Below are positions 1 to 19,319 of a stretch of DNA of 64,000 nucleotides, piece after piece. The position numbers and the translations under genes were made by a program. The notes below the pieces were generated by a model. The model was not told where the DNA came from. It searched no databases and was given only the letters and a program-made list of their open reading frames with translations. Position 1 is the stretch's first letter, and each line of letters opens with the position of its first letter. The stretch is from the NCBI RefSeq assembly GCF_058153355.1, contig NZ_CM177019.1. The stretch is one strand, 5' to 3'.

Positions 1-373
1 GGCTGGGTAAAGCCATCTTTCAGAAGTTTAAAAATCAGCTCATCCGGCTGAACTGCCGCAGAACGGCCCATCTCCTGAAAAATCGGCGCATAAATACCCA
101 GATTGTCATCCTCGAAGTCATCACGGGAAATACCCACGGTGCCTTCAAACGTTTTATTGGCGATAGAGTAGCCATGCGCTTCCATTTGCTGAATGGTTCG
201 CTTACCCACCCATTCTTTCAGGGTCGGGAATTTACCCAGCCAGCCATAGGTATTACTGCGGGTGGAAGAGTTCACCACCATTGCAATTTTGCTGTACTGC
301 GACGGGGCGTCTTCAAGACCGCCCTGAAAATCCTTACGCCAGGAGGTCATCAGGGCTTTAATGGATGCCGGGG
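1..373 (-). CDS. T: Mu major head subunit T (gp34), N-terminal part only; gene runs off the window edge
   Basis: Reverse-strand translation from ATG at 373 gives MIVTPASIKALMTSWRKDFQGGLEDAPSQYSKIAMVVNSS...; lies directly downstream of I as in Mu. Confidence 0.8.
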
Positions 374-379
374 TGACAA

Positions 380-1465: not shown

Positions 1466-1661
1466 GTCCTGCTGCTCATCATGGTTTGTGAGCAGTCAGT
1501 TTGCGGGTGGTGCGGGAAAATCTGGGGTTATGCTATTTGAGTAATGGAGAAAGAAAGTGGAAGGAAGATAAAACGGGATTCATACACCGTTAAATACCGG
1601 TTTAAAAATCCCCTGGCGCGTTTTAAAAAATCTGTGCGGCTGATTTCATGTCTGATTCAGT
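1466..1661 (-). promoter_or_regulatory. Mu G-I intergenic region; expected site of the centre-of-genome strong gyrase site and the C-dependent late promoter P_I
   Basis: 196-bp non-coding gap about 17.8-18.0 kb from the Mu left end; assignment from established Mu biology, exact motifs not mapped. Confidence 0.4.
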
Positions 1662-2132
1662 TTATTGCCTCAGAGCGGCGCTGACGCGTTTTCTGATGGC
1701 ATCAAAAATTTCCTGTTCCCCGGTCTTATCCAGCCCCATATAAGGACGCGCAGGAACGCCTGCCGGGCGGGGTGCCATATCGGGTGTACCTCCCCACTGA
1801 TGAATGGCAGCATAAATTTTTGGCGAACCAATCAGGGCATAATCCTGTCCATAATCGGTGGTAATGCTGCGTGCCAGATCGCCATGCAGGGTAAGGATAC
1901 TGCCCGGAACAAAACCATGATCCTGACGCCATGCCTGCCACGAATCGCTCCACGCTTCCCAGCCTTTCCCTGTATCCGGGTCTGCCTGCCGTTCAAATGC
2001 CTGTTCCGTGGATGACAGCAGCGCCGCAGCCATCACACGGGGAATGGCGCGGTCACGTGTAACGGTTCCCAGTTCATCCAGTGCAAGCTGAATACGTCGC
2101 ACATCCACGGCAACGTTCATATCAAGACTCAC
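1662..2132 (-). CDS. G: Mu G protein (gp31), virion morphogenesis
   Basis: ORF track 156 aa, MSLDMNVAVDVRRIQLALDELG...; synteny F-G-I. Confidence 0.85.
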   Translation of the reverse strand: MSLDMNVAVDVRRIQLALDELGTVTRDRAIPRVMAAALLSSTEQAFERQADPDTGKGWEAWSDSWQAWRQDHGFVPGSILTLHGDLARSITTDYGQDYALIGSPKIYAAIHQWGGTPDMAPRPAGVPARPYMGLDKTGEQEIFDAIRKRVSAALRQ

Positions 2133-3448
2133 TTATTCACCTCCACATGCCCCTCCAGTACGTCAATCATCCCGTCAGCAATCGCGGTTTCAAGCGACTG
2201 TGCAGATACGCGGCTGATACTGACCAGCACATCCGCACGGTCATTCTGCCTGCCGACTGTCTGTGATGTTCTGACCACAATCCGGGCCATGCCGTCACGG
2301 GTTGCCACAACATACAGCAACTGGTGGTTCTCCCTGTCCCACAATACTGCCTGTGGTTTTGCCATCAGCGACGGCAGATGCTGTAAATCCTCCGGTTTCA
2401 GGGCGGCATCAGCAGTGGTCGCCAGACTTTTCCCGTTCATCACAAGCAGACGGGCTGGCATATTCCCGGTGCGCTGATGTACGGCTTCAGCTACCGATTC
2501 CGTCATAAAACCCAGTGCCCGGATTTCATGACCGGTCTGACGTGATCCTGCCAGGCGTTTAAGCCAGAGGGAAAAAGCAAGCTGACGCTCCCGGCTGTTA
2601 TTCAGCGTCTGAACAACCTGCTCACGCAACTGCGCGTCGCGAATTTCCACCAGTTTTCGAATCAGTGCCTGATCCGTACCAAATGCCGCCGAACCGGGGT
2701 TATATGACCAGCCCACATCCGGCGTCATTTTTACCCGACCGTTGTCAAACGTGGTTGACGATGTGCGGAAAATCTCTCCGGTGCTTTCATCCGTACCGGC
2801 ATCCACTTCGCGGGTATTCATGAATGACGCACCATAACTGACCTGTAGCCCCAGTTCTTTCATGCGGGCCGCAGACAGCGCCCGGACGCGACAGCGGCAG
2901 TTCCAGCCATTGGGCGGGTAATGCGTCTGCCAGAAAATGTCGTCATACCGGAAAACCATATTGTGCAGCCGCGCATGTTCCGGGCGTGTTCTGCCATCCA
3001 TAACGGCAACGTACTGCCAGTACGGGTACAAATCGGCGGTATTCATCATCTGCGCATAACGTCCTGCCCCATACGCCGTACGGGTATTGACGTTATAAAT
3101 GGTTGCCAGACGACGCGGACTGCCCAGCTCGATTACCTTCGCGTTTCCGTCTGCATCCACGATGATTTGTTTTCCCCACCATCCGAGTTTTTGCAGCCGG
3201 GGGGCCAGTGTGCGGGTAAATTCCTCACGGGTGATGCCTTCACTGACAGCCCGCTCCACTTCCTCACGGATTGTGGTCAGGACATCCATCCGGGTGGCTT
3301 TGGCAACGGTAAAGGCGCGGGCGTGCGCGTCTGCCAGTTGTTCGTACCAGTTCCAGGTGATGTTGTAGCCTTTGGCGCGGAAATACGCGACAGCCTCCTT
3401 TGGCGGGAGGCGTGCGGCATACGCCAGATCAATGGTCTGCTGCGGCAT
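2129..3448 (-). CDS. F: Mu F protein (gp30), head morphogenesis
   Basis: ORF track 2129..3484 begins at a GTG; the ATG at 3448 (MPQQTIDLAY...) has a GGGGG Shine-Dalgarno 7 nt upstream, so the shorter start is preferred. Confidence 0.8.
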   Translation of the reverse strand: MPQQTIDLAYAARLPPKEAVAYFRAKGYNITWNWYEQLADAHARAFTVAKATRMDVLTTIREEVERAVSEGITREEFTRTLAPRLQKLGWWGKQIIVDADGNAKVIELGSPRRLATIYNVNTRTAYGAGRYAQMMNTADLYPYWQYVAVMDGRTRPEHARLHNMVFRYDDIFWQTHYPPNGWNCRCRVRALSAARMKELGLQVSYGASFMNTREVDAGTDESTGEIFRTSSTTFDNGRVKMTPDVGWSYNPGSAAFGTDQALIRKLVEIRDAQLREQVVQTLNNSRERQLAFSLWLKRLAGSRQTGHEIRALGFMTESVAEAVHQRTGNMPARLLVMNGKSLATTADAALKPEDLQHLPSLMAKPQAVLWDRENHQLLYVVATRDGMARIVVRTSQTVGRQNDRADVLVSISRVSAQSLETAIADGMIDVLEGHVEVNK

Positions 3449-4967
3449 CCAGACGCCCCCATATATCGGCAACAAAAATGGCACGGGTCAGCATGTCGAT
3501 AAGTTCTGCATCATCCATCTGCGGATATAATGAAGCAGCTTTGTTCATGGCGGCTTCCGGGCCATCTTTCAGCACAGAAAAAATGACGGGTTTCAGCAGG
3601 GGATCAACCGAACGCTGCCAGTCTTCCGGTGAGACGCCCATCCGGTCGATATCATCCTCCTGCGGGATATCTTCAGCGGATAATGCGGCCTCTTTCTGCG
3701 GACCGTTATCCGGGACAACCGGTTGAGCAGTAAACACGGCTTCATCACCGACCGGCTGTGGAATATGAAGTTTTTCCTGTATCCAGGAGACCGGAATACG
3801 CATTCCCGCCGCCAGTTTCGGAATGGCGTCAGACAGTGCCGTAATATCACCCGCTTCACTGGTATCAAACACAATGCCCGGCAGGCGGTTAATATCAATG
3901 GTGCTGTCACTGTTCAGTGCCAGCAGGGGATAAATCAGGTCACGGTTAATACTGCGGGCAAGCTGGCCCACATCCGCGTTACGGATTTCCCGGCGAACCT
4001 CATCATGCACTTCACCCAGCGACCGTGCACCTTTATCGCCAGCCTCTGTGGTCAGGGTGCCGCCCAGAATGGCTTTTGAAATCGCTTTTTCTGCCCAGCC
4101 AATCATCGCCATAAAGGGGTCTGACTGACCATCTGCGGCGCTCTGAAAATCCAGCGTCATCCCCATCGGAATAATGCCGCCGGCACGTCGCCCGATATCC
4201 ATCACGGCCTGCATCAGCGTGGCTTTCTCGCGGTTCGTTGAGCCGGTCGGATATTTACCGACGCGCATGGGGAGTCCGTAAATTTCCAGAAACTCTGCAA
4301 AATCACGCACGGAATAGTTTTTAAAAATAAAAGGCCAGATAAGCGTGCGCACAAGGCCATTGGTGCCGACATACCCGGTGCGGGATTTGGCCCGGTGCAT
4401 AAACCAGCCGAACGGTTGCAGCTCCAGCCCGTGATAAGACGCATCACGCAGGCGTAATTCGTTCAGATTGTCGGGGTTCGCACAGAACAGCGCCGGATCG
4501 CGATGATGCAGCGCCACCGGCACGCGCATTTTGCCCAGCCAGCCCCATTCAATCTCCTGCATGGAATAACCCTTGAGAATGGCATCACCGGCATCAAACA
4601 GGGCATCTTCAAACCACGCCGCATCATGCAGATATTCATTCAGCATGTCGGCGTCTTTTTTCTCCTGTGCGCTGGCATCACGTGCCGGAGCGATGCGCCA
4701 TTCCAGCGCCTGAATGGCAAGGCGGCGCTTGCTCAGTTCGGAAAAAAGGTGGGTGTCCTTTTCTTCCATATCAAAGGCCAGGTCAGCCTGTGCGGTCAGA
4801 TCACCGCGTTCGGCATCACGCAGCATCTGCGCGGCCCGGTTCGGCGTCACACCACTGGAAGGATGCTCCTGCGTACGCTTCATGACCATTGCCAGCTCAT
4901 CGCTGCGGGTCTGCATTTCATCGTCAAAATCAAACGGCTGCCCGGAAATATCCAGAATACGGCCCAT
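3429..4967 (-). CDS. H: Mu portal protein H (gp29)
   Basis: ORF track 512 aa, MGRILDISGQPFDFDDEMQTRSDELAMV...; between terminase and F. Confidence 0.9.
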   Translation of the reverse strand: MGRILDISGQPFDFDDEMQTRSDELAMVMKRTQEHPSSGVTPNRAAQMLRDAERGDLTAQADLAFDMEEKDTHLFSELSKRRLAIQALEWRIAPARDASAQEKKDADMLNEYLHDAAWFEDALFDAGDAILKGYSMQEIEWGWLGKMRVPVALHHRDPALFCANPDNLNELRLRDASYHGLELQPFGWFMHRAKSRTGYVGTNGLVRTLIWPFIFKNYSVRDFAEFLEIYGLPMRVGKYPTGSTNREKATLMQAVMDIGRRAGGIIPMGMTLDFQSAADGQSDPFMAMIGWAEKAISKAILGGTLTTEAGDKGARSLGEVHDEVRREIRNADVGQLARSINRDLIYPLLALNSDSTIDINRLPGIVFDTSEAGDITALSDAIPKLAAGMRIPVSWIQEKLHIPQPVGDEAVFTAQPVVPDNGPQKEAALSAEDIPQEDDIDRMGVSPEDWQRSVDPLLKPVIFSVLKDGPEAAMNKAASLYPQMDDAELIDMLTRAIFVADIWGRLDAAADH

Positions 4968-6622
4968 TACCAGCCCCCTCGTTCAAACTGGTGATAATCA
5001 TCAAAATCATCGTTATCAACATCATCACCACGGTGGCGTGGTGGCAGCGCCTGTATGCTGTCCTCGTCGATAACAAAACCATTCATATAAGACGCTCTGA
5101 CAGCCATACAGAGCGCCACGGCAAAGTCGCCATGTCGTCGGCCTTTACCACCTTCATCTTTTGTGCGCCCCTTATCAATCTGCGGAATACCTTTGTCCAC
5201 CTTGATGTGGAGCAGGTCATCAAGAGTGGTCTGGTGCCGGGCAATCGTGATGTTCTGCGCTTCAAACTCGCCTTTCAGTTTTGGCATCCACTCCTGATAC
5301 CAGGATGCGGTCAGATTCACACAGTCGATCATCTCCGGGCCATAAATCAGACGGGCGGCTTCTGCCAGATAACCGCCGTTACCGGTGGCATCAAATGCAG
5401 CGCCGGTAAAACGGGGCAAACGGGACAGAATGAATAAAAGGATTTGTCGCTGCTGGTCATAGGTCACATTACGCAGCTCCACGCGGAAACATTCGCGTTT
5501 GCGTAAGTCAGGAGTGATGGCAAGCGGAACAAACACCGTCAGGTCGCCACGGCGTGCAAAGTCTTCGCCCAGTACGTGTTTATTGAGCGGCGACAGCGCA
5601 TCGAGCAACGGGAGCAGCTCCTGTTCACACCAGTCCTGAACGATGCCGTGGCGCATTTGTGGTGTCAGCGATTCAAAATCGTCCGGGGCTTCAAAACGCA
5701 GAATCGGGATATCCCGCGCTGGCGTCATGGCGGCTTCAATCAGCACGCGTGACAGATAAGCGCCCCCGGATTTTTTAGGAATGCAGCCGTATTCCTCGTC
5801 GGCACTCTCTTTATTCGGCGCATTCCGGTACAGGCCATCACGCCAGGCTTTTTCCGCTTCCGGCGACCACGGCTGATTCGTGACGTAACAGATACGTCGG
5901 TACAACCCGTCAGCGATGGCATCATCCAGCGTGATGCGGTGAACGCTGTAATCCTTGCGCCCCTCGCGCGCATCCTGAATGTACTGGTTAAACAGGTTAT
6001 CGACGCCGTTATGTGTCGATATGATCCGCACGCGGGCACCCCACATGGTGAGAGCAAAGGCCGCTTTCAGGAGTTCGTCCAGGGCTTCATGAAATGCCGC
6101 CTCATCAATCACCACGTCCCCCTGCAAACCACGCAGGTTAGACGGACGGCTTGACAGCGCCTGCACCTTAAATCCGCTGTTAGGGAAACGGATCATATAA
6201 GTGAGGATTTCTTCTTTTTTGTCGCTGTCCCAGAAGGTCTGCTCCCAGACATCAGCCTTTGCCAGCTGGTTAAAGGCGCGGGCAAACAGGGCACAGGCGG
6301 CGATATATTCCAGCGCCATTTCCTGACGGGAACCCACATAAAAGACGTTGCGACCGCCACGGCGGCGCGGCTTTGCTGCCGTCATGACATTGCGGCCCGC
6401 TTCGGCCCATGTCAGACCGGTACGACGGGATTTTTCAGCGATGCAAATCTGGCTTTCATCCTCAAACCAGCGGCGCTGATAGCCCAGAAAAACCGGTTCA
6501 TTGCGGGGCTGTGCTTCCCCGATATCGGTCACGATATTCACGCCGAGCAGTTCGGCTTCCTCACGCAGGTTGATTTTTCGGGGGGCATGAAGGGCTTTAA
6601 GGTTGTTTTCTCTGGTGTTCAT
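4967..6622 (-). CDS. Mu large terminase subunit (gp28)
   Basis: Track ORF is 615 aa, but an internal ATG at 6622 (MNTRENNLKALHAP...) sits just downstream of the gp27 stop, giving 552 aa; position upstream of portal. Confidence 0.85.
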   Translation of the reverse strand: MNTRENNLKALHAPRKINLREEAELLGVNIVTDIGEAQPRNEPVFLGYQRRWFEDESQICIAEKSRRTGLTWAEAGRNVMTAAKPRRRGGRNVFYVGSRQEMALEYIAACALFARAFNQLAKADVWEQTFWDSDKKEEILTYMIRFPNSGFKVQALSSRPSNLRGLQGDVVIDEAAFHEALDELLKAAFALTMWGARVRIISTHNGVDNLFNQYIQDAREGRKDYSVHRITLDDAIADGLYRRICYVTNQPWSPEAEKAWRDGLYRNAPNKESADEEYGCIPKKSGGAYLSRVLIEAAMTPARDIPILRFEAPDDFESLTPQMRHGIVQDWCEQELLPLLDALSPLNKHVLGEDFARRGDLTVFVPLAITPDLRKRECFRVELRNVTYDQQRQILLFILSRLPRFTGAAFDATGNGGYLAEAARLIYGPEMIDCVNLTASWYQEWMPKLKGEFEAQNITIARHQTTLDDLLHIKVDKGIPQIDKGRTKDEGGKGRRHGDFAVALCMAVRASYMNGFVIDEDSIQALPPRHRGDDVDNDDFDDYHQFERGGW

Positions 6623-6629
6623 AACCCTC

Positions 6630-7220
6630 TCATGCCTTACCCAGCAGCACATCACGGATACGCTGCTCCAGCTCTTCGCTGATGCCATCCTGCCCGCGCA
6701 GTTCTTCACTGACGGCGTTTGCCGCTTCTTCTGCGAATGCCTGGCGGATTTCTTTCTCGCGCCGGTGGCTGGACATTGCCGTGGATTCCAGACGCTGTGC
6801 CGCCAGCATGGCATTTTTCAGCAGGTCAATATCCACGTCAGATTCCGGGTTTTCGATTTGCCGCATCATGGCCTTAAAAAGCTGGCTGCGGGCCATTTCC
6901 AGAATCAGCTTTGTGGTTTCTCCCATTGGCTTGTCGCCAAGTTCTGCGGTCAGTGCTGACGTCATTTCACGCATCTGTCGCAGGTTATGGCCTACCTGCT
7001 CGACGTTCGTCGCGTAACGATTCAGACCGGAACGGGAGAGTTTCATCTCATCCGGCAGGCCAGCGTCTTCAATCAGTGCGTTAATTTCTTCCAGAATGCG
7101 GGCCTGTGGGATCGCCTTATCACGCAGCATTTCATGCAGCGTTTTACGTACGTTTTCCGGCAGTAAATCCACTTTTGAAGCCCGGCCCCGTGTTTTCCTG
7201 TCCATCACGCCTCCTGTCAT
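6630..7220 (-). CDS. Mu gp27, DNA-binding small terminase-like protein
   Basis: ORF track 196 aa, charged helical protein immediately upstream of the large terminase gene. Confidence 0.7.
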   Translation of the reverse strand: MTGGVMDRKTRGRASKVDLLPENVRKTLHEMLRDKAIPQARILEEINALIEDAGLPDEMKLSRSGLNRYATNVEQVGHNLRQMREMTSALTAELGDKPMGETTKLILEMARSQLFKAMMRQIENPESDVDIDLLKNAMLAAQRLESTAMSSHRREKEIRQAFAEEAANAVSEELRGQDGISEELEQRIRDVLLGKA

Positions 7221-7507
7221 GCACGGGGACGCGGACGCTTGACACCGGCAACGCGGGCGCGGCCTTCCGCCACATCCTGACCTCGGGAGGTCAGCGTTAC
7301 GACATAAAAGCCGCGCAGGTTTTCCACGGTGACCAGTTGCTGCTCTGCCAGCCAGTCAATCTGGCCGCGAACCACATCGCGGGAAACGTTGTGTCCGTAT
7401 GCATCCAGACAGTCCTGAAGGATGGATTCGTTGGCTTCGTTATTGCAGTCCATCAGGGAACGCAGGATGACCAGACGACGGTCTTCAGTCAGAATATCGT
7501 TAATCAT
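7217..7507 (-). CDS. Mu gp26-position hypothetical protein
   Basis: ORF track 96 aa; start overlaps the upstream gene stop (ATGA). Confidence 0.6.
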   Translation of the reverse strand: MINDILTEDRRLVILRSLMDCNNEANESILQDCLDAYGHNVSRDVVRGQIDWLAEQQLVTVENLRGFYVVTLTSRGQDVAEGRARVAGVKRPRPRA

Positions 7508-7821
7508 GAATTACTCCGGTTTACTGCGTTTTCAAGCAGCAGCTCCAGTTGATGGGAAAATGACTGCACCCGCTGGGACAGCACCCGGATATCGCCGGAC
7601 AGCTCTGCAATACGCAGGCGCATTTCGTGTACATCTTCTGTGCCGGGGATGCTGGCGTAGCGGGTTTCCATTTCGGTCATCCGGTTTTCAAGACGCTCCA
7701 CACGCTCAGTGCTGGCAAAACTACGACGCATTGCCCAGACGGCCCCACCGGCCACAACAGGCAACAGGTAAGGCCATAACGCTAAAACTGAAATCAAATC
7801 CATTATTCTGCTCCACGGCAC
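7504..7821 (-). CDS. Mu gp25-position membrane protein (releasin or holin-like lysis accessory)
   Basis: ORF track 105 aa with N-terminal hydrophobic segment LISVLALWPYLLPVVAGGAVWAM, then a charged coiled region. Confidence 0.6.
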   Translation of the reverse strand: MPWSRIMDLISVLALWPYLLPVVAGGAVWAMRRSFASTERVERLENRMTEMETRYASIPGTEDVHEMRLRIAELSGDIRVLSQRVQSFSHQLELLLENAVNRSNS

Positions 7822-7997
7822 CAGTGGCAGTAGTTCGCCATCGGCTGCTGTCTCAGCACATCAGGCCGCAGCTCACGACCGCAACCGGCACACAATACAG
7901 GCGGGTCATACGCCGCCGGGCGGGGAATATCACGGGTATCCCCCTGCCAGAGTTCAGCGAGCAGCAGCGCCACCGCCCGGTTCTGGTCTTCGTTCAT
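7803..7997 (-). CDS. Mu gp24-position small zinc-ribbon protein
   Basis: ORF track 64 aa with CAGC...CHWC cysteine pairs. Confidence 0.5.
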   Translation of the reverse strand: MNEDQNRAVALLLAELWQGDTRDIPRPAAYDPPVLCAGCGRELRPDVLRQQPMANYCHWCRGAE

Positions 7998-8295
7998 AAA
8001 TTTCTTTCCTTCGGGTCTCCTGTTCCCGGACTGATGCCTTGTCGCGGTTGCACTGCCCGAGCGCCATCAACAGGTCAGCATTCCAGAGAAGGGATGCTCC
8101 CCACGTCAGGGGCTGTGGCATGGGCGGAACGGGCGTTGCTTCCGTCAGTTCTGCATCAGTTTCGGGCAGGATCACCACCGATGGCACGGGTGCGTTTTTC
8201 GAGTTCCCGCAACCTGTCAGCAGCAACGGCAGGCACAGGACGAGTGCTGCAATTGTCACCGGTAATGGCGGTTGTAATTTTTTGTTTTGCATCAT
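7954..8295 (-). CDS. Mu o-spanin outer-membrane lipoprotein (gp23.1), partly overlapping the i-spanin gene in another frame
   Basis: Inside track ORF 7954..8430: MMQNKKLQPPLPVTIAALVLCLPLLLTGC has a signal peptide plus LTGC lipobox, followed by a proline-rich mature region. Confidence 0.65.
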   Translation of the reverse strand: MMQNKKLQPPLPVTIAALVLCLPLLLTGCGNSKNAPVPSVVILPETDAELTEATPVPPMPQPLTWGASLLWNADLLMALGQCNRDKASVREQETRRKEIYERRPEPGGGAAAR

Positions 8296-8542
8296 GATGT
8301 TCTGTCTCATCTTCCAGCCGCGCGGCACGATTTGCGGCACGGATAGCGGAAAATACCTGCATCGTCTGTTCCTGACTGTGTAACAACCATTCAGCAGTGT
8401 GGCGGGCCTGTTGCTCCGTCTGTAATTCACGGCGCAGCGTCTGGTTATCGTGGCGGGTGCTGTCCAGCCTGTGCCACAACACCCCGGACAGAACGGCGGT
8501 AAACACGGCTGCCAGCAGTAAACTTTTACTGGCGAAGGTCAT
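8156..8542 (-). CDS. Mu i-spanin (gp23)
   Basis: ORF track 128 aa with N-terminal TM helix (LLLAAVFTAVLSGVLW) and a charged coiled-coil; immediately downstream of the endolysin. Confidence 0.7.
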   Translation of the reverse strand: MTFASKSLLLAAVFTAVLSGVLWHRLDSTRHDNQTLRRELQTEQQARHTAEWLLHSQEQTMQVFSAIRAANRAARLEDETEHHDAKQKITTAITGDNCSTRPVPAVAADRLRELEKRTRAIGGDPARN

Positions 8543-9044
8543 CCGCCCCCCTGATATTCCAGATTGCCATTTCCACTTCGCGACGGTTCATCAGTCCTTT
8601 CCATTTATGGCCTGCGGCAAACACCCAGCGGGCCATCTGGTCACGTGCTCCGGCGTAATCACCGGCATTGAGTTTTTTCAGCAGCGTTGATTTACTGAAT
8701 GCGGTAACACCGGTGTTGAAAATAAACGTTGCCAGCGCCGTTTTCTGATATGGCGTCAGCGGCACCCTGACAAGACGATCGATTGCCGCATAAACCGGTT
8801 TTAAATCACTGTCGAGGAGAGCCATACACTCCGCATGGCTGTAACGGCGCATTTCAATATCCGGCCCGGTATGTCCCACACAGACCGTAAGCACACCGGC
8901 AATATCGCGGTAAGGCAGATAAGCGATATTTTCCAGATGGATCAGAGACTGACGGGTCATTTCCTGATAACCACCCACACCGCCACCGGCAATTGTTACA
9001 GCCAGCAGTGCGGCTTTCAGTTTTTTTGGGATCTCCGCCATCAT
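8526..9044 (-). CDS. lys: Mu endolysin Lys (gp22), SAR-type lysozyme
   Basis: ORF track 172 aa, MMAEIPKKLKAALLAVTIAGGGVGGYQEM..., N-terminal signal-anchor-release helix followed by a lysozyme domain. Confidence 0.9.
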   Translation of the reverse strand: MMAEIPKKLKAALLAVTIAGGGVGGYQEMTRQSLIHLENIAYLPYRDIAGVLTVCVGHTGPDIEMRRYSHAECMALLDSDLKPVYAAIDRLVRVPLTPYQKTALATFIFNTGVTAFSKSTLLKKLNAGDYAGARDQMARWVFAAGHKWKGLMNRREVEMAIWNIRGADDLRQ

Positions 9045-9135
9045 GCTTCCCTGAAAAAATGCGCTGATGGCAGTCTAAAAAATCAGGTGACAGGTGCGGG
9101 ATTATGGTGACAGGAAATAACCGGCAGGATGCCGG
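9045..9135 (-). promoter_or_regulatory. C-lys intergenic region, expected location of C-dependent late promoter Plys
   Basis: 91-bp gap between C stop and lys start; assignment from Mu biology. Confidence 0.4.
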
Positions 9136-9558
9136 TTATTTCTGGCTTTCAGGTGAGAACAGGTCAGGCTGATGACGTCGTGTATGCAGCTTTCTCTGGC
9201 GGGCAATAATCTGGTAGATCTGCGGCTGGGACAGGCGATACTGGCGACGCAGTTCTTCCATGTTACGACCATTGAACTGGCAGTAAAGCAAATCGTCGCG
9301 TAACGCGGTCAGGATCGTATCGCCGCAGGGGATGTAAAACTGCCGCCCGCCCAGAAAACAGGACAGGGCAACGGCCTGTTTACGGGCAAGCTCACGGGGA
9401 TTGCTGACGTTCTGGCGTTTCAGTTCGTTTTCCAGAACATCAATCAGATCAACCACCGAACGGGGCCAGCGTGATTCCAGTTCCGGGGCCGGGATGTTAT
9501 CAATATGTCCGATTAACTGGCGAATTGCCGGATCGTGTTCAAATAAATCATGCTGCAT
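9136..9558 (-). CDS. C: Mu late transcription activator C
   Basis: ORF track 140 aa, MQHDLFEHDPAIRQLIGHIDNIPAPELESRWPR...; shares its C-terminal fold with Mor (..FNGRN..EL..Y). Confidence 0.9.
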   Translation of the reverse strand: MQHDLFEHDPAIRQLIGHIDNIPAPELESRWPRSVVDLIDVLENELKRQNVSNPRELARKQAVALSCFLGGRQFYIPCGDTILTALRDDLLYCQFNGRNMEELRRQYRLSQPQIYQIIARQRKLHTRRHQPDLFSPESQK

Positions 9559-9670
9559 ATTTTCCCCCGGTTAACAGACAGAAAGATACACCACGGCACT
9601 GATGGTTATCAGAACCACAAGGGCAATCACTTTTATCGCACTCATCAGCGTGGACGGACCGAAACATTCA

Positions 9671-9901
9671 TCACTGAATTTTCTGTACACAATATTTTTC
9701 CTTATAACGTTGGCAGTGGTGAAGAATTTCCGGCATATCAACCGACTGCCAGCCTTTCATGTAATAACTTCCGTGGGTGCCATCATGACCGGTATAGTCG
9801 CGGGGCGAAGGCCGTGGCCCACCGGCGACACGGTGTAAAACCTCCTGACGCAGCCGCTCACGTCTGCCAAGATGAAAGGATGCATTCCAGCCTTTACCCA
9901 T
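9671..9901 (-). CDS. Hypothetical small protein in the mor-C interval (uncertain coding)
   Basis: ORF track 76 aa; region should also hold the middle promoter Pm; overlaps a plus-strand ORF. Confidence 0.3.
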   Translation of the reverse strand: MGKGWNASFHLGRRERLRQEVLHRVAGGPRPSPRDYTGHDGTHGSYYMKGWQSVDMPEILHHCQRYKEKYCVQKIQ

Positions 9902-9978
9902 GATGATTTCCCCCGGTACGGTTATTCATCACAGGATATTGAGGACGTAAAAAAAGCCGGATTAACCGGCTTTACTGT

Positions 9979-10368
9979 TTACAGTAGTGAGGGCTGGTAC
10001 TGGCGGTATTTCAGCCGTCGCATCCGGCGAATGGCCTTGTAAACCGTATTGAAAGTGACACCATAACGGGTGGTCAGTTCGCTGACGTTGCGACCGTTAA
10101 AATCATTCCAGATACGCAAATCCCGAATCAGCGAGTCCAGAACCTGACCGCGTGGAATGTAGACCTGACCGCCGCCCAGATGCTTACAGATAGCCACAAC
10201 AATCTCCAGTGAATGGGCAGGATCAACACCCAGCCGGGACAATTCCCCGCGCAGTAAATCGTTCAGCTCCGCCAGCAGTGCCGGAAAGCGTGACGTATCC
10301 TCGGCGGGATTGTCAAGATGTGCCAGGATGGTGTCATCCTGCAAATCACCAAATAAATCTTCCGTCAT
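9979..10368 (-). CDS. mor: Mu middle operon regulator Mor
   Basis: ORF track 129 aa, MTEDLFGDLQDDTILAHLDNPAEDTSRF... Confidence 0.9.
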   Translation of the reverse strand: MTEDLFGDLQDDTILAHLDNPAEDTSRFPALLAELNDLLRGELSRLGVDPAHSLEIVVAICKHLGGGQVYIPRGQVLDSLIRDLRIWNDFNGRNVSELTTRYGVTFNTVYKAIRRMRRLKYRQYQPSLL

Positions 10369-10916
10369 TGTGCCATCCTCCGTGTCTTTCTGGCATGGGC
10401 ATAAGCCGCCGTCATGGCATCATAGCCGCGCAGTTCACGCCCGGACGGACTGACCGGCAACGGAAGCTCGTGACGGGAAAAGGCTTCACGAATACAGCGG
10501 ATGTGCCACTGCTTGAGTGTTTCGAGGACTGTCAGCAGCGTGTCGCCATGACACCACGCCAGTGTGGAAACGCCCTGTCCGCCGTTGCGTTTCGCGGTCA
10601 GGCGCTGAACATATTTATCCAGCGCCACATCACCGCCATCGGTAATAAAACCGTCTTCTGCCATCTGCTGCCAGACTTTGTATACCTTCTCGCGGGGCGT
10701 GACATGCCCCTTAAAGCGGCGACGTGGATGTTTATTCTGCTTCTTAAAGCCGCGTTCTTTCATGGCATCAATCACCTGTTCCAGTTGCGTAACCGTCAGC
10801 TCGCGGCAACTGATTTTGCCCGTTTTCTGCATCAGAAAGGCGCGGTAAGTATCGTCGCCGAGTTGTAGCTCCCGACGGGCGACATGGATTAATTTAATCA
10901 GGGATGTGCGATTCAT
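10365..10916 (-). CDS. gemA: Mu GemA
   Basis: ORF track 183 aa, MNRTSLIKLIHVARRELQLGDDTYRAFL...; immediately upstream of mor with ATGA overlap. Confidence 0.8.
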   Translation of the reverse strand: MNRTSLIKLIHVARRELQLGDDTYRAFLMQKTGKISCRELTVTQLEQVIDAMKERGFKKQNKHPRRRFKGHVTPREKVYKVWQQMAEDGFITDGGDVALDKYVQRLTAKRNGGQGVSTLAWCHGDTLLTVLETLKQWHIRCIREAFSRHELPLPVSPSGRELRGYDAMTAAYAHARKTRRMAQ

Positions 10917-10985
10917 GATCGTACCTCCGGAAAGAGGCGGTGCTGCAACACCGCCTGAATTTACACATCAATCAGAGAGGATTTT

Positions 10986-11252
10986 ATGGAAAATAATGTA
11001 CAACCTTATGATGTTGCAGGTTATGCGATTGCATCAGCACTGGTGCGCCTTCTGGTGAAGAAGGCGATCATCACCGCAGAAGAGGGCCAAGCCATTTTCA
11101 GCTCTTCAGCAGAGATTTTAAAAGATGCGCCTGCAATAAGAACAAGCCGCCGCGAAAACATGCAACTGTCAAAGATCATGGAAGACATTATCAGTTCGTT
11201 AGACCCAGATGCTGACGGATCTCAAAAGCCTCAAACACATGAGCGTCAGTAA
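10986..11252 (+). CDS. Plus-strand hypothetical protein inside the Mu early operon, antisense to the early transcript
   Basis: ORF track 88 aa; ATG preceded by GAGAGG Shine-Dalgarno 7 nt upstream; 3' end overlaps the convergent ORF 11191..11493 by 62 nt. Confidence 0.35.
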   Translation: MENNVQPYDVAGYAIASALVRLLVKKAIITAEEGQAIFSSSAEILKDAPAIRTSRRENMQLSKIMEDIISSLDPDADGSQKPQTHERQ

Positions 11253-11493
11253 CAATATCCTGGTCTGATAACCCCAGCCTGCGGCGGATGTACTCCTCGC
11301 GGGCTGTTTCATTTTGCAGTGCCACTACTGTTTCCAGACGATTCATTTCGCGGTTGATAATGTCACGGACTTCTCTGGCGGTGAGATTATGCTTAATACC
11401 ATATTCAACGATAGCGCGAACACGTTCCAGCATCCCTTTTTCAGCCATGACGTTATCAATATTAAGGGGAGTAAATTTATCTTCATTGTTCAT
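11191..11493 (-). CDS. Mu semi-essential region hypothetical protein
   Basis: ORF track 100 aa; ATGA overlap with the upstream ORF. Confidence 0.5.
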   Translation of the reverse strand: MNNEDKFTPLNIDNVMAEKGMLERVRAIVEYGIKHNLTAREVRDIINREMNRLETVVALQNETAREEYIRRRLGLSDQDIVTDAHVFEAFEIRQHLGLTN

Positions 11494-11813
11494 TTTGCGG
11501 CCCTCAGAATAAATTCAGGATAAAATTTCAGACTCATTTGCCGTAACACATCCAGTGCAGCAACGGCTGCTGATTTATCGTTGCCATCAGCAATAGCGCG
11601 GAGATTTTCAATAATCCAGTGAGGACTCAGTGACTCAGCAACAATACCGAGTCGGTACGCCATGACCTCATCAATTGCACGGTTATAAGACGGGGCGTAT
11701 ACCGCCGCCACAAAGTTACCGATCACATCTTCAGGAAAACCCGCCGCCGTCAACAACGCTGTCAGTTCCTCGGATTTTGTAAATACGCCATTATTCATTC
11801 TGTTCACCTTCAC
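11490..11813 (-). CDS. Mu semi-essential region hypothetical protein
   Basis: ORF track 107 aa. Confidence 0.55.
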   Translation of the reverse strand: MKVNRMNNGVFTKSEELTALLTAAGFPEDVIGNFVAAVYAPSYNRAIDEVMAYRLGIVAESLSPHWIIENLRAIADGNDKSAAVAALDVLRQMSLKFYPEFILRAAK

Positions 11814-11982
11814 AATTCATGCACGCCGTGTCATCGCCCATATCGCAGTGGTTGCATTTCTGCCCGCCACAATGGGGACACTCTTTCAGATATTCAGGGG
11901 ATTCATTACCGCAGGTCGGGCATTCCTGTTTCACCGTGGTGAATTTCCCCAGCCACGAATACGATGTTTCATTGTTTTCCAT
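11791..11982 (-). CDS. Mu semi-essential region small zinc-ribbon protein
   Basis: Track ORF 11791..12054; internal start MENNETSYSW at 11982 has a GGAGG Shine-Dalgarno; CPTCG...CPHCGGQKCNHC...CMNC cysteine clusters. Confidence 0.5.
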   Translation of the reverse strand: MENNETSYSWLGKFTTVKQECPTCGNESPEYLKECPHCGGQKCNHCDMGDDTACMNCEGEQNE

Positions 11983-12520
11983 TGTTTGCCTCCGCCTGCT
12001 CCAGTGCCATAACTGGTGCGTCAGAACAGTCAAGAATGAGATAGCGCAGTACATGGTCGGTGATATTCCATGCGCTTGAGCTGCAAATAAAACGCCCCAG
12101 CCGGATATCGATATAAGCCATCACAAAACGGGGCATTCCCTGTTTGCACATCTCGTCATCCACTTCTGCAACGATGTGAACGGATTCACAGGTCAGTACG
12201 CCTGTCGCAAACTCTTTTGCCAGCGCGGGGATAGTATTACCTTCCACCCAGGGTAATGAGCGACGCCAGTTGCACCACACCGCATCATCAACGGCAGGCT
12301 GCTCAGTTGCGTTTCGTCTTACAGGCGGCGTCGGACGCGGGCGCGGAACGTCATAAAATCCGTTGCATTCGGTGAGCACTCCGGCATCAACCGCATCCCG
12401 CAGGAAATACACCATTGACGAGGGCAGCATCTTCATTTTTTCAGCCAGAACCCCGCAGGTCAGACGCCCGTAAGCCAGTAATAATGTGCTGACCCCATTC
12501 AGAACTTTTGCATCAATCAC
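11969..12520 (-). CDS. Mu semi-essential region hypothetical protein
   Basis: ORF track 183 aa. Confidence 0.55.
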   Translation of the reverse strand: MIDAKVLNGVSTLLLAYGRLTCGVLAEKMKMLPSSMVYFLRDAVDAGVLTECNGFYDVPRPRPTPPVRRNATEQPAVDDAVWCNWRRSLPWVEGNTIPALAKEFATGVLTCESVHIVAEVDDEMCKQGMPRFVMAYIDIRLGRFICSSSAWNITDHVLRYLILDCSDAPVMALEQAEANNGKQ

Positions 12521-12523
12521 CGG

Positions 12524-13078
12524 TTATTCCTCCGTCAGTGCCACAAATTCAGAATGTTTAATACGCTGGCATTCGGAGGGAACTGGTCCTTTAACCTCAC
12601 CGTCCAGAAGGCGCACCTCAAACAAAATGCCGAATCCATCACGGGTGTGGTGCATCTCCCAGAGCGATTTGAAATCCCACATATTGGGTATGACATCAAC
12701 CCCAAGTTCATTGCACAGCCAGCCCGGAAAATCCGGGTATTTACCGAGCTGATTTTCATAGCCCCGGATAAGCTCCGCGTGTTCCCGGCCTGCTGGTGTT
12801 GTCATATCCGGCATCGCTGCCCATAACTGAATATCACCAATAAAAAGTGTCCTTGATTTAATCTCCCATCCTTCCGGTGGTAAACGGTTAAACCAGACAC
12901 GCGTAACCCTCTCAGGCCCTTTGTCACCAGACAAAAACACACCGCTTGCTTTCACTGATTGCTGTAATGACGCAATAATCTCACCACGCTTAACAGAAAC
13001 CTCTTTCAGCCAGCGAATCGTATAACCGTTAGCGGCTGCGTCACTCAGTTTAAAATAAGCACATGCTTTCATTTTCAT
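12524..13078 (-). CDS. Mu semi-essential region hypothetical protein
   Basis: ORF track 184 aa. Confidence 0.55.
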   Translation of the reverse strand: MKMKACAYFKLSDAAANGYTIRWLKEVSVKRGEIIASLQQSVKASGVFLSGDKGPERVTRVWFNRLPPEGWEIKSRTLFIGDIQLWAAMPDMTTPAGREHAELIRGYENQLGKYPDFPGWLCNELGVDVIPNMWDFKSLWEMHHTRDGFGILFEVRLLDGEVKGPVPSECQRIKHSEFVALTEE

Positions 13079-13169
13079 TCTCTCCGGTTCTGATTAAGGC
13101 GCGAGTCGTCCCCTGACGCATCGCGCCATAATTAAACGAATGTGAATTAATTAAATATTAATGGTGGTA

Positions 13170-13694
13170 TTAAATACCGGCTTCCTGTTCAAACGGAATA
13201 ATGGAAAAATCTTCAATTCCCGATTTAACTGTAATTCCGGCAACACCTGCGACCGCTTTCGGTTCCAGTAAAATCGCTTCCTTGTTGATTTCCTGCTTCG
13301 TGCGAATAAAGCGTTGCAGGCCAAGACGCTCCAGCGTTTCCATCACTGCATCCATACCACGAATACTTACTGATGGTGGACGGACCCGCCACGATACATC
13401 ACCGGTGACAAGATTTGCCGTTTTCACTTTGCCGCCGTTTGTCAGTTCGTCGCGGTTCGCTTCACACCATCCCTGAACGCCTTTTGAAAGGGTTTCAATA
13501 TCGGTTTTAATCGGTGCAATCCGGGCTGCAAATTTCTCCGTAATTTCCGCGATGGCATCATTCATTTCCGTTTCCAGACGTGATGCTTCGCGCTGTAAGT
13601 CCCCGATGCGTTTAATATCGGTAATCACCGCATCGCGGTTTTGTGGCACATAAGCCGCTGCGGCACTTTTGATACGTTTTGCTGGTTTAGCCAT
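13170..13694 (-). CDS. gam: Mu Gam, DNA-end-binding host nuclease inhibitor (Ku-like)
   Basis: ORF track 174 aa, MAKPAKRIKSAAAAYVPQNRDAVITDIKRIGDLQREASRLETEMNDAIAEI... Confidence 0.9.
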   Translation of the reverse strand: MAKPAKRIKSAAAAYVPQNRDAVITDIKRIGDLQREASRLETEMNDAIAEITEKFAARIAPIKTDIETLSKGVQGWCEANRDELTNGGKVKTANLVTGDVSWRVRPPSVSIRGMDAVMETLERLGLQRFIRTKQEINKEAILLEPKAVAGVAGITVKSGIEDFSIIPFEQEAGI

Positions 13695-13713
13695 AAATTA
13701 AAGCTCCTGTTAA

Positions 13714-14013
13714 TTAATATCCGCTGTATACAATGCTGGATACAGCTCGATTGCTTAATTCCATCTTTCGGGCAATGACATGAATATCCAGCCCTTCTTT
13801 ATAAAGTTCACGACATAAATATTTGTCGTGTTCACTGATTCGGTATACACACAATGATATTCCGTGCCTTCTGGCATGTGCCCGGAGGGCGGTTGTGGCG
13901 ACTTTCAGTTTTTCCGCCATTTCTTCAACGGTCATTTTCCCGACGTTGGCTTCGATAAATTCCCGGTCTTCGCGTGACCAGCGCTTACGATTACACTTCA
14001 TGTCAGCCACCAT
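13714..14013 (-). CDS. Mu early region hypothetical protein with a putative helix-turn-helix
   Basis: ORF track 99 aa; segment MTVEEMAEKLKVATTALRAHARRHGISL resembles an HTH. Confidence 0.55.
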   Translation of the reverse strand: MVADMKCNRKRWSREDREFIEANVGKMTVEEMAEKLKVATTALRAHARRHGISLCVYRISEHDKYLCRELYKEGLDIHVIARKMELSNRAVSSIVYSGY

Positions 14014-14433
14014 TCAGTACAGCAGAGGCTCGCGCAGTGATGCCGGAATATGCCGCAGCGATAACTGAACCGCTTTCAGGGCAAGCGAGGAATAACAGCA
14101 GCGCGCCCGGCCTTTTGCCATTAACCGGTAATCGCGCCAGATACGCTGCCACATTTCACGGGCTTCAGGGTCTGATGCGCAGATGTATTCCCGGTCCATG
14201 ACGTACTCCCATAAATCCACGTTGAACGCACCGCCAAATGCAATGGCGCGGGATATGCTTTCGCCGCAATAACGCGCACAGATGCTGTAATGGTCGAAAG
14301 CAATCAGGTAAGTCTTTTCACCACAATCATCAACTTTCCGGGCGTAAATAAATCCGCGTAATTCACCACCGTTGTTATTGCGTCCCTGAATTCGGATTAA
14401 TGCCTGAATTTCATTTCGGATTTTGACGTTCAT
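14014..14433 (-). CDS. Mu early region hypothetical protein
   Basis: ORF track 139 aa. Confidence 0.55.
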   Translation of the reverse strand: MNVKIRNEIQALIRIQGRNNNGGELRGFIYARKVDDCGEKTYLIAFDHYSICARYCGESISRAIAFGGAFNVDLWEYVMDREYICASDPEAREMWQRIWRDYRLMAKGRARCCYSSLALKAVQLSLRHIPASLREPLLY

Positions 14434-14453
14434 TGTCAGCGCTCCTTTGCGAA

Positions 14454-14723
14454 TTAATGTTTAACCGCATTCACCGGATGTGGTACTAAATCACATTCAG
14501 CCTCCATACCCACTTTCTTCATAGTGGTCAGCATCTCATCTTTGGCCTTTTTAATAATTTCAGGAGCCATAGTCAGGACGATATTTGCCAGTAAATCATG
14601 AGGCCCGGTATTTTCCGTTGGCGAGATATCTGCAAGACATGCTTTTGCATCCAGAACTTCTCTGCGCCCATTGCAACCTTCACAACTTTCCAGCCATGTA
14701 AACTCAAAGATAACTTTTGCCAT
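14454..14723 (-). CDS. Mu early region hypothetical protein
   Basis: ORF track 89 aa, cysteine-containing (CEGCNGRRE). Confidence 0.5.
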   Translation of the reverse strand: MAKVIFEFTWLESCEGCNGRREVLDAKACLADISPTENTGPHDLLANIVLTMAPEIIKKAKDEMLTTMKKVGMEAECDLVPHPVNAVKH

Positions 14724-14734
14724 TTTGTTTCCCC

Positions 14735-14989
14735 TTATTGATTCTGAATAACTGCGCTGGCTTTTACCTTCGCGCCTTTTACCTGCTTAAAGAAAACCGC
14801 GCTGCACCACGGACAACATGCAAAGGAGTCCCATACTTCATTTTCTGGTGAGCATTGCGTCATAATTTGCTCTTTGCACTTGGGGCAATTAAATGCAGTC
14901 AGAGCCACATTGTTATTCTGTACCCGTTTAACCCATTCAATATATTTTCCAGCTTTAGTACACATCGTTATCTCCAGATAATCTGGCAA
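14735..14989 (-). CDS. Mu early region small zinc-finger-like protein
   Basis: ORF track 84 aa with CPKC and CCPWC motifs. Confidence 0.5.
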
Positions 14990-15195
14990 CCATTAAGACG
15001 GGCCGTCCATACAGAACGGGCCACCCCGGACTTATGCTCCATAATTCTGACCGCGTTTTTTACCAGTTCCACCGGTGGGTAAGTGATTTCAAGAATCGGA
15101 CGCGCCACGCCGAGATATGATTCATTTACATGACTCCCGCGCGCCTGTAACCAGTTCTGCGCATCCGTTGCCATTTTTATATTTCGGGCCATCAT
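14968..15195 (-). CDS. kil: Mu Kil-position protein (first gene after B)
   Basis: ORF track 75 aa immediately downstream of B; assignment by position and size. Confidence 0.5.
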
Positions 15196-15210
15196 AATTT
15201 CTTCTCCTTC

Positions 15211-16149: not shown

Positions 16150-16187
16150 CTGAATAACCTCGTAATTAAATTTTGTTAAAACGTTAA

Positions 16188-18179: not shown

Positions 18180-18180
18180 G

Positions 18181-18408
18181 TTATTCACCTGCTTGATATC
18201 GGCTAGGCCAGATTACTTCCGGTTTAGTTTCTAAGGCGTTAGCAATAATCTGCTCACCCTTTGGCCAGTGTCGTTCTAGCGCATTAGCTAATGTAGTTGG
18301 CGCATAACCGAACTGCCGGGAAAGAGCTGATAAAGAGAGCTTTCTTTTCTTAAGTCCCGCAATCACATCCGCTCGATGCCAATCACGGGCCTTTTCGTTG
18401 GAACACAT
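18181..18408 (-). CDS. ner: Mu Ner, early-transcription negative regulator
   Basis: ORF track 75 aa, [36 protein letters not shown]... Confidence 0.9.
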
Positions 18409-19168: not shown

Positions 19169-19319
19169 CAACCATGAACCAGCTAAAACATACTTCACCT
19201 CACATAATCACACATGTAACATACCTAAACGGCATAAGCTGATTTGTGATATGAGTCATTTGGTGACAGCCTGGTTGTTATCGGTTTTGAACGTTTTTTG
19301 AAGCTGTTATTGAAATGAT

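Follow-up and report, generated by a model that had tools for sequence, protein, structure and literature searches.

How a phage frees a membrane-tethered endolysin when it encodes no holin is the question raised by a set of lysis genes on contig NZ_CM177019.1 (assembly GCF_058153355.1), found within an analysed stretch of 64,000 nucleotides, hereafter the window. In most phages with signal-anchor-release (SAR) endolysins, a pinholin depolarises the membrane and the enzyme is thereby freed. Mu was found by Chamblee et al. (2022, mBio 13:e00813-22, PMC9239132) to lack a holin and to free its tethered endolysin with gp25; for Mu itself, their study established SAR behaviour and the spanin phenotype, showed that no holin is present and that endolysin release depends on gp25, and defined what residues K6 and K7 of the endolysin gp22 contribute. 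We consider, with a probability of roughly 0.93, that the genes in the window are the late-operon lysis genes of a Mu-type (Muvirus) prophage, which would be expected to work as published for Mu. The holin-less Mu lysis system with its releasin is already known, and the present copy is nearly identical to that of Mu.

A Muvirus prophage and its transcription units

A Muvirus prophage occupies window positions 1-19506 on the minus strand; this is its left ~19.5 kb, the only part of it contained in the window, and the host chromosome is E. coli-like. A perfect Mu left end at 19506 adjoins host DNA, and the prophage contents also include the transposase region, GemA and Mor. Over 3.1 kb, nucleotide identity is ~98% to Mu, D108, SfMu and several Yersinia Mu-like phages (plaque-forming), and the lysis-cassette proteins are 96-100% identical to their Mu counterparts, figures which together exclude a chance origin of the cassette; gp24, gp25, gp26 and gp27 are each 100% identical to the Mu homologue. 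Phage_lysozyme, LysC (Rz1-like), DUF2730 and Mor (twice) are the Pfam families matched in the region. The analysis rests on gene content, order, overlaps, motifs and family membership alongside this protein identity, and it bears out the attribution to a Mu lysis cassette made in a preliminary description of the locus, in agreement with the findings of Chamblee et al. (2022, PMC9239132). Every feature of that description was located in the sequence, either at the position given or only a few codons away.

A prophage gene set may also be an inactive remnant, idle in its present host, and of the competing explanations this one survives best: the window shows only part of the prophage, and the exact gp22 variant found here (G3E and M42L relative to Mu) occurs on a single contig among ~15 billion proteins. 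That the cassette belongs to such a defective prophage is nevertheless quite unlikely, as all genes from mor through terminase are intact and 96-100% identical to their counterparts in active phages, the Mu left end is perfect and the promoter regions are conserved.

The promoters and genes described below lie on the minus strand unless stated otherwise. By analogy with Mu, genes 22 through 25 and onward would be transcribed from the C-dependent late promoter Plys, placed at 9052-9118 by the coordinates of the Mu record AF083977. A C terminator-like hairpin (9115-9138) is found directly upstream of Plys. The late-gene transcription activator C, a Mor family protein of 140 aa (9136-9558; Pfam Mor, E=9e-34), is identical to Mu C at 138 of 140 residues. 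When the C-lys segment at 9030-9145 (116 nt) was aligned to Mu, 7 differences were seen, three in the Plys promoter/leader and four in the coding ends of C and gp22.

The mor-C interval (9559-9978) had been described as carrying ORFs that overlap on both strands; the overlap is present, but the only genuine genes are 18 and 20, both on the minus strand. Upstream of them is the Mor-dependent middle promoter Pm (9916-9986), placed from the Mu record and near-identical in sequence to Mu, with a mor terminator-like hairpin at ~9953-9973 within the Pm region. Gene 18 (9671-9901) encodes a soluble protein of 76 aa, recognised by its alignment to the 72-aa gp18 of Mu (66 identities over the 76/72-aa alignment), the C-terminus of which it does not share because gene 19 is absent. 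Gene 20 (9571-9690), with a GTG start, encodes 39 aa with one transmembrane domain (PHROG 19823, E=2e-29; 37 of 39 residues identical to Mu gp20), which is strongly hydrophobic, its maximum 19-residue Kyte-Doolittle mean (KD19) reaching 2.77; the gene is part of the middle (Pm) operon, and in Mu its product does not serve as a holin. The 372 bp that carry gene 19 in Mu have no counterpart here, the gap falling precisely at the junction of genes 18 and 20, an absence on which the preliminary description did not remark. The same gene-19-less arrangement occurs in SfMu, Tongde, PhiR68_1 and most prophage relatives and is apparently more frequent in nature, which agrees with gp19 not being a lysis gene.

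Endolysin, spanins and gp24

The endolysin ORF (8526-9044, minus strand) begins MMAEIPKKLKAALLAVTIAGGGVGGY. Its product gp22 (lys; 8526-9041, 171 aa) is assigned as a SAR endolysin of the GH24/T4-lysozyme type from Pfam, PHROG and identity to Mu gp22, with which it shares 169 of 171 residues (99%), differing only by G3E and M42L. It matches Pfam Phage_lysozyme (E=1.6e-37) and the PHROG endolysin family (E=1e-51), has the catalytic domain of the GH24/T4-lysozyme type, and contains the triad E37-x8-D46-x5-T52, found by pattern search. The cytoplasmic tail was assigned from sequence as MAEIPKKLK, with K6, K7 and K9 present, and the SAR domain as residues ~8-25. Counting from the second ATG, residues 6-25 are KKLKAALLAVTIAGGGVGGY, with four Ala, five Gly and one Thr, such that 10 of the 20 positions are G, A, S or T; the maximum KD19 of gp22 is 1.09, below the usual transmembrane threshold, and this weak hydrophobicity is as expected of a SAR domain. 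The earlier proposal of a SAR endolysin with a hydrophobic, glycine-rich N-terminus is therefore upheld by the Gly/Ala-rich segment and its KD19, the Phage_lysozyme match and the E-D-T triad. Among solved structures, RrrD (4zpu) and the phage 21 SAR endolysin (3hde/3hdf) are nearest in sequence, at E~1e-37, and the alignment to these structures extends into the N-terminal segment. SAR behaviour of Mu gp22, which can be released by a pinholin, was shown experimentally by Chamblee et al. (2022, PMC9239132), and by analogy the present gp22 would be exported, tethered and released in the same way.

An alternative in-frame ATG at 9044, one codon upstream, gives the 172-aa gp22 of the preliminary description. 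This start is less likely, as only 2 nt separate it from the upstream GGGAAG, compared to 5 nt for the second ATG, at which Mu numbering begins; the 172-aa form of the exact gp22 sequence was not found in the protein collection searched, while the 171-aa form was.

Overlapping the last 17 nt of gp22 is the start of gp23 (8156-8542, 128 aa), identified as the i-spanin by PHROG 214 ‘Rz-like spanin’ (E=1.5e-34), the annotation of the Mu record and identity to Mu gp23 at 124 of 128 residues (97%); its match to Pfam DUF2570 is below cut-off. The protein has an N-terminal transmembrane domain at ~4-22 (maximum KD19 1.80) and, on its sequence, is an N-in/C-out i-spanin with a putative periplasmic helical domain. 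A single cysteine, Cys98, is present. The o-spanin lipoprotein gp23.1 (7954-8295, 113 aa; 108 residues, or 96%, identical to Mu gp23.1) matches Pfam LysC (Rz1-like) above the gathering score (E=7.7e-15) and the PHROG Rz-like spanins (E=9e-30). Its signal peptide has the lipobox LTGC, with Cys29 as the predicted lipidation site, followed by G-N-S, and since Gly rather than Asp occupies the +2 position, the protein is expected to be sorted to the outer membrane. Of the 85 mature residues 10 are Pro, and a second Cys is found at position 82. It had been noted previously that the o-spanin gene, with a lipobox LLTGC, starts inside the i-spanin gene in a different frame and outruns its stop, and this arrangement was confirmed: gp23.1 starts 247 nt into gp23 in the +1 frame, overlaps it by 140 nt and continues for 202 nt past the gp23 stop, giving an overlapped spanin architecture adjoining the endolysin gene. 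In Mu, amber mutants in 23/23.1 yield spherical cells, and lambda RzRz1 complements the Mu 23.1 amber mutant (Chamblee et al. 2022, PMC9239132; the latter from the Fig. 2A legend).

Between the o-spanin and gp25 lies gp24 (7803-7997), which was left out of the preliminary description. This soluble protein of 64 aa is 100% identical to Mu gp24, matches PHROG 3260 (E=1e-42) and contains CxxC...CxxC, a putative zinc ribbon. There is a 44-nt overlap between its gene and the 3' end of the o-spanin gene, and in TAATG a single base belongs both to its gene and to the start of gp25. For gp24, as for gp18 and gp20, no Pfam or NCBIfam match reached the cut-offs, permissive thresholds included.

gp25 and the question of a holin

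The fourth gene after gp22 (following 23, 23.1 and 24), and so no more than five genes past the endolysin gene of this transposable phage, encodes gp25 (7504-7803, 99 aa), which is 100% identical to Mu gp25 and matches Pfam DUF2730 (PF10805 type I) over its full length (E=2.5e-13, 50.4 bits compared to a gathering cut-off of 24.9). The unnamed membrane protein of the preliminary description is this DUF2730 releasin, which takes over the endolysin-freeing job of a holin. Reported there as a 105-aa membrane protein at 7504-7821, it does have the ORF and the membrane segment, but the start was over-extended by 18 nt and the true product is 99 aa. The ATG at 7803 was taken as the start and the GTG at 7821 rejected, because the ATG is the one annotated in Mu, is preceded at 7 nt by GGAG and forms TAATG with the stop of gp24, to which it is coupled.

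A single transmembrane domain spans residues ~4-25 of gp25 (maximum KD19 1.84), with RR at 26-27 marking the membrane-cytoplasm junction, and from the positive-inside rule the protein is probably N-out/C-in with almost nothing in the periplasm. The AF2 model (pLDDT 88.8) has helices at 3-50 and 55-98 with a turn at the near-invariant P53, so that the cytoplasmic part of 73 residues is predicted to be a simple two-helix hairpin. Searches of this model against PDB and BFVD gave no significant fold match and therefore no mechanistic lead beyond a helical hairpin. In Mu, a 25::cam mutant does not lyse in a timely manner, and either K6A or K7A in gp22 abolishes gp25 dependence (Chamblee et al. 2022, PMC9239132); the present gp22 retains K6 and K7 and would, by analogy, have the same releasin requirement. 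Because the predicted cytoplasmic part is a plain helical hairpin, a non-enzymatic mode of action is preferred, in which gp25 may shield the charge of the basic tail or escort it.

The statement that there is no canonical holin was likewise borne out, as the only membrane proteins of the late transcript are gp23, gp23.1 and gp25, matching the Mu experiments. Across the part of the prophage within the window, gp20, gp23, gp23.1 and gp25 are the only free-standing coding-strand ORFs with a strong hydrophobic segment. Other hydrophobic ORF matches are short and were judged by position to be out-of-frame inside larger genes, with only one of them, 4930-5082, compared with its neighbouring gene (the terminase 3' end). 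Gene content and the Mu data together revealed no holin or pinholin, looked for as a small membrane protein of the late transcript, in this part of the prophage.

Could gp20 be a cryptic holin, which alone or with gp18 permeabilises or depolarises the membrane and so releases gp22? Its very hydrophobic transmembrane domain and its position upstream of lys would suit such a role, and Samanta et al. (2021, as cited in PMC9239132) proposed gp19 and gp20 as a holin/antiholin pair. However, gene 20 belongs to the middle operon and not the late one, gene 19, which would encode its partner, is lacking both here and in the plaque-forming SfMu, Tongde and PhiR68_1, and Mu lysis was unaffected when genes 19 and 20 were inactivated (Mathee & Howe 1993, as cited in PMC9239132). 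Chamblee et al. (2022, PMC9239132) found that Mu gp19, gp20 and both together are non-lethal after DNP triggering, and that DNP delays Mu lysis and does not advance it. For Mu this proposal is largely refuted, and it is very improbable for the present copy.

Equally improbable is that gp25 is itself a pinholin-like membrane depolariser instead of a releasin that acts on the tail of the endolysin. It is a small protein of the late lysis cassette with a single transmembrane domain, and it boosts the release of unrelated SAR endolysins (PMC9239132), as a pinholin would. Against this, expression of Mu gp25, to which the present protein is 100% identical, has no growth effect and is non-lethal with DNP, Mu lysis is not prematurely triggered by DNP (PMC9239132), and a single K6A or K7A change in gp22 removes the gp25 requirement, which implicates the cytoplasmic tail as opposed to membrane potential. 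The last candidate, a plus-strand ORF at 9602-9838 raised previously as a possible holin and antisense to genes 18/20, is open for 78 codons with a moderately hydrophobic stretch (KD19 1.69) and can be dismissed as an antisense artefact, since it has an in-frame stop in the near-identical relatives SfMu, Tongde and PhiR68_1, is split in Mu and D108 by the 372-bp gene 19 insertion, matches no Pfam or PHROG family, and owes its open frame here solely to a TCA>TCG change that is synonymous in gene 18.

Returning to gp25 as a releasin, the present copy probably behaves identically to Mu, and the following sequence of events can be proposed. Late in the lytic cycle, activator C would turn on Plys, and gp22 would be exported via Sec and, enzymatically restrained, would remain anchored in the inner membrane through its N-terminal SAR domain, which is rich in Gly and Ala and only weakly hydrophobic. 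Without a holin, the positive K6/K7 pair on the cytoplasmic side would lock gp22 in the bilayer, such that gp25, with its N-out/C-in anchor and cytoplasmic hairpin, would be needed for the SAR domain to exit the membrane. The freed gp22 would refold and degrade peptidoglycan, after which the spanin complex of gp23 in the inner membrane and the outer-membrane lipoprotein gp23.1 would disrupt the outer membrane.

Known lysis systems and the G3E allele

Comparison with the Mu cassette gp22-gp23/23.1-gp24-gp25 (AF083977) provides the closest likeness, extending to gene order, overlaps, promoters and proteins, with K6/K7/K9, the E-D-T triad, the lipobox and the DUF2730 domain all kept. The present copy differs from it by G3E and M42L in gp22 and three substitutions in the Plys promoter/leader and, in the middle operon, by the lack of gene 19 and the GTG start of gene 20. 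In common with the present copy, SfMu, Yersinia phages vB_YpM_Tongde/3/23 and Escherichia phage PhiR68_1 have the gene-19-less order mor-18-20-C with an identical junction, and their lysis cassettes are 98-99% identical to it in nucleotide sequence; all have G3 in gp22, unlike the E3 found here, and gp25 of SfMu has a small N-terminal indel compared to the present gp25. In the public annotations of these phages the o-spanin and releasin are unnamed.

More distant systems share parts of this logic. The phage 21 endolysin R21 is a gp22 homologue (E~1e-37 to 3hde/3hdf) with the same Sec-dependent signal-anchor-release logic, but there the pinholin S21-68 depolarises the membrane to free the enzyme, whereas the Mu-type system has no holin and requires the DUF2730 releasin. 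Unlike P1 Lyz, gp22 has no cysteine in its SAR domain, and thiol-disulfide activation in the style of P1 Lyz is therefore inapplicable. The spanins resemble lambda Rz/Rz1 in that a type II protein of the inner membrane is paired with a lipoprotein of the outer membrane, whose gene occupies the +1 frame of the same DNA, but lambda Rz1 is fully embedded in Rz, while the Mu-type 23.1 is ‘overlapped’ and runs 202 nt beyond the gp23 stop; the sequence similarity of gp23 to lambda Rz is weak, as reflected in the sub-threshold DUF2570 match.

Considering the alleles of gp22, G3E was not found in any of the 16 gp22 relatives inspected. This rare substitution adjoins K6/K7, the residues that impose releasin dependence, placing an acidic residue three positions away from this pair and lowering the net side-chain charge of the tail from +3 to +2. 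There is a slight chance that G3E could partly relieve the dependence of gp22 on gp25, or shift the timing of lysis.

The value of this locus as a discovery is small, since the SAR endolysin, overlapped spanins and releasin of Mu were dissected experimentally in 2022. Its value for annotation lies in the o-spanin, gp20 and releasin, which most public records of such prophages have yet to name. If G3E does act in either of these ways, this prophage would offer a natural allele from which to learn how the charge of the tail holds a SAR domain in the bilayer.

Prophage and gene order

The canonical left end of Mu (attL; TGTATTGATTCACTTG) lies at position 19506 on the minus strand and the DNA from 19507 onwards is of E. 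coli chromosomal type (98.8% identity), so the window comprises ~19.5 kb from the left part of a Muvirus prophage and ~44 kb of host DNA. Of the two prophage ends it covers the left one. The junction with host DNA (19506/19507) falls between yihS and yihR, in intergenic sequence at 34 bp upstream of the latter, within the sulfoquinovose catabolism cluster. Mu, D108, SfMu, PhiR68_1 and several Mu-like phages of Yersinia pestis share 98–99% identity with a 3.1-kb query from mor to gp26, and they are also the phages matched by the head genes and early region that flank it.

The ORF map and sequence place a compactly packed series of minus-strand genes between mor and the terminase genes: mor (9979–10368; product 128/129 identical to Mu), gene 18 (9671–9901), gene 20 (9571–9690), C (9136–9558; 138/140), lys, encoding gp22 (8526–9041; 169/171), the genes for gp23 (8156–8542; 124/128) and gp23.1 (7954–8295; 108/113), and those for gp24 (7803–7997), gp25 (7504–7803) and gp26 (7217–7507), which, like gp27, are 100% identical to Mu. 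All of the features in the preliminary description are present, with three corrections: the start of gp25, the gene for gp24, which lies between the o-spanin and gp25 and was missing from its list, and the plus-strand ORF at 9602–9838. Its lys boundary of 9044 corresponds to an in-frame ATG one codon upstream.

Endolysin, spanins and lysis without a holin

The lysis system is already known in detail from Mu, and the current GenBank record for that phage (AF083977) already uses these lysis-gene names. Chamblee et al. (2022, mBio; PMC9239132) showed that Mu gp22 is a SAR endolysin releasable by the pinholin of phage 21, that gp19, gp20 and gp25 all fail as holins when tested by DNP triggering, and that Mu lysis is delayed, not advanced, by DNP; they termed Mu a holin-less phage, with the gp25 releasin as substitute. 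The statement that no canonical holin is present is therefore correct. Across the window, gp20, gp23, gp23.1 and gp25 are the only free-standing ORFs on the coding strand of the prophage that contain a strongly hydrophobic segment.

The SAR endolysin assignment holds for gp22, which matches Pfam Phage_lysozyme (E=1.6e-37), contains the catalytic triad E37-x8-D46-x5-T52 and begins MAEIPKKLKAALLAVTIAGGGVGGY. Residues 6–25 include 4 Ala, 5 Gly and 1 Thr, the composition given for the Mu SAR domain (PMC9239132), and the best 19-residue Kyte–Doolittle mean (KD19) is just 1.09. Standard TM predictors may overlook so weakly hydrophobic a segment, and a failed TM prediction is thus an unsafe refutation test for gp22. 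Among solved structures, the sequence of gp22 is closest to RrrD (4zpu) and to R21, the SAR endolysin of phage 21 (3hde/3hdf), with the alignment reaching into the N-terminal segment. Unlike P1 Lyz, gp22 would not be activated through a disulfide, because its SAR segment has no Cys.

The two spanin genes overlap as described. An N-terminal TMD (KD19 1.80) and a match to the PHROG ‘Rz-like spanin’ family (E=1.5e-34) identify gp23, within which gp23.1 starts in the +1 frame, overlapping it by 140 nt and extending 202 nt past its stop. The lipobox LTGC of gp23.1 (Cys29) is followed by Gly-Asn-Ser, 10 of its 85 mature residues are Pro, and it matches Pfam LysC (Rz1-like; E=7.7e-15). Mu genes 23 and 23.1 encode the subunits of the spanin, and their amber mutants, which lambda RzRz1 complements, produce spherical cells (Chamblee et al. 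2022, PMC9239132).

By analogy with the near-identical Mu, the late promoter Plys would be switched on by C; gp22 would be exported and its SAR domain would keep it in the inner membrane, with the K6/K7 charges as lock, until gp25 enabled its release; released gp22 would degrade peptidoglycan and the gp23/gp23.1 complex would breach the outer membrane. The promoter and leader stretch (Plys 9052–9118; alignment 9030–9145) has three substitutions relative to Mu. Two of them set the window apart from all of Mu, SfMu and Tongde, and the third is a position where SfMu and Tongde agree with the window and Mu alone differs.

Two residues of gp22 differ from Mu, G3E (GGG>GAG; minus strand, codon 3, 9033–9035) and M42L, and this exact protein is recorded once, in a single E. 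coli contig (HFG3511432.1). Position 3 is Gly in all 16 relatives inspected (6 phage homologues and 10 further cluster members). G3E lies in the short cytoplasmic tail (MAEIPKKLK), lowering its side-chain net charge from +3 to +2, three residues ahead of K6/K7, the pair on which the releasin dependence of Mu gp22 rests (PMC9239132). In Mu gp22 charge arrangement rather than total mattered, since K9A was without effect (Chamblee et al. 2022, PMC9239132). A functional effect of G3E is therefore conceivable, with a low probability.

The gp25 releasin and gp24

What had been left as an unexplained 105-aa membrane protein is, judged by its sequence, the known holin substitute, the gp25 releasin. 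Its membrane character stands (TMD with KD19 1.84, followed by RR; DUF2730 match above the gathering score) and its length does not: the longest-ORF start, GTG at 7821, was rejected in favour of the Mu-annotated ATG at 7803, which gives 99 aa, is preceded by GGAG and overlaps the gp24 stop by one base (TAATG). Chamblee et al. (2022, PMC9239132), who coined the name releasin, found that Mu gp25 and gp22 together suffice for lysis from plasmids, that a 25::cam lysogen does not lyse on schedule and yet chloroform can liberate active gp22, that gp22 with K6A or K7A no longer needs gp25, and that the release of unrelated SAR endolysins is likewise enhanced by gp25.

Proposals for how gp25 acts are tail proteolysis, neutralisation of charge, formation of a transient channel and involvement of a host partner. 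From the family, 91 representative clusters were collected at E≤1e-3, and 66 sequences of these were aligned. In the predicted model (pLDDT 88.8) the TMD and a cytoplasmic helix form one uninterrupted helix (residues 3–50), followed by a turn (51–54), whose P53 is almost invariant in the aligned sequences, and a second helix (55–98); the predicted fold is a membrane-anchored antiparallel hairpin, with no significant relative in PDB or BFVD (Foldseek). A 73-residue two-helix hairpin would leave no room for a protease fold, and for that reason prediction, rather than demonstration, favours the non-enzymatic models.

Also inside the cassette is the 64-aa gp24 (CxxC...CxxC; PHROG 3260, ‘unknown’), whose gene shares 44 nt with the 3′ end of the o-spanin gene and, via TAATG, is translationally coupled to that of the releasin. 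It is dispensable for gp22 plus gp25 lysis from plasmids in Mu (PMC9239132).

The mor–C interval and gene 19

Compared with Mu, exactly the 372-bp segment carrying gene 19 (Mu sequence L001, 2211–2582), which encodes a 4-TMD protein once proposed as holin, is missing at junction 9690/9691. Gene 18 continues into another C-terminus, giving a 76-aa product, and gene 20 starts with GTG. The identical junction occurs in SfMu, Tongde and PhiR68_1, and the divergence from Mu at 10 of the 30 nt just upstream is more suggestive of mosaic recombination than of a simple deletion. The 76-aa gp18 is found in at least 1000 contigs and the 72-aa Mu form in tens; 40 of 5426 complete E. coli genomes carry the cassette, and gene 19 is missing in 16 of the 25 listed. 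The gene-19-less arrangement (76-aa gp18, GTG-start gp20) appears far commoner in public assemblies than that of Mu.

A hydrophobic plus-strand ORF at 9602–9838, noted in the preliminary description, exists and is an artefact rather than a genuine gene. It spans the gene-19 junction and is therefore impossible in Mu or D108, has an in-frame stop in all three gene-19-less relatives (SfMu, Tongde, PhiR68_1), is open here solely through TCA>TCG, synonymous in gene 18, and has no family match in Pfam or PHROG.

Other cargo occupies the mor–C slot in the Yersinia phages vB_YpM_5/6, where a 186-aa protein upstream of gene 18 (vB_YpM_5, L002 705–1265; Pfam GH108, E=9e-25; PG_binding_3, E=7e-14) is a putative second peptidoglycan hydrolase in the middle operon of a holin-less phage. 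In vB_YpM_5, gp20 is present and unannotated (L002 1469–1588).

The observation is confirmed and its interpretation supported. A corrected annotation is the useful output: it resets the start of gp25, includes gp24, gp20 and gp23.1, discards the antisense ORF as spurious and notes the absence of gene 19 and the G3E allele. Plaque-forming phages without gene 19 offer natural support for that gene being dispensable in lysis.
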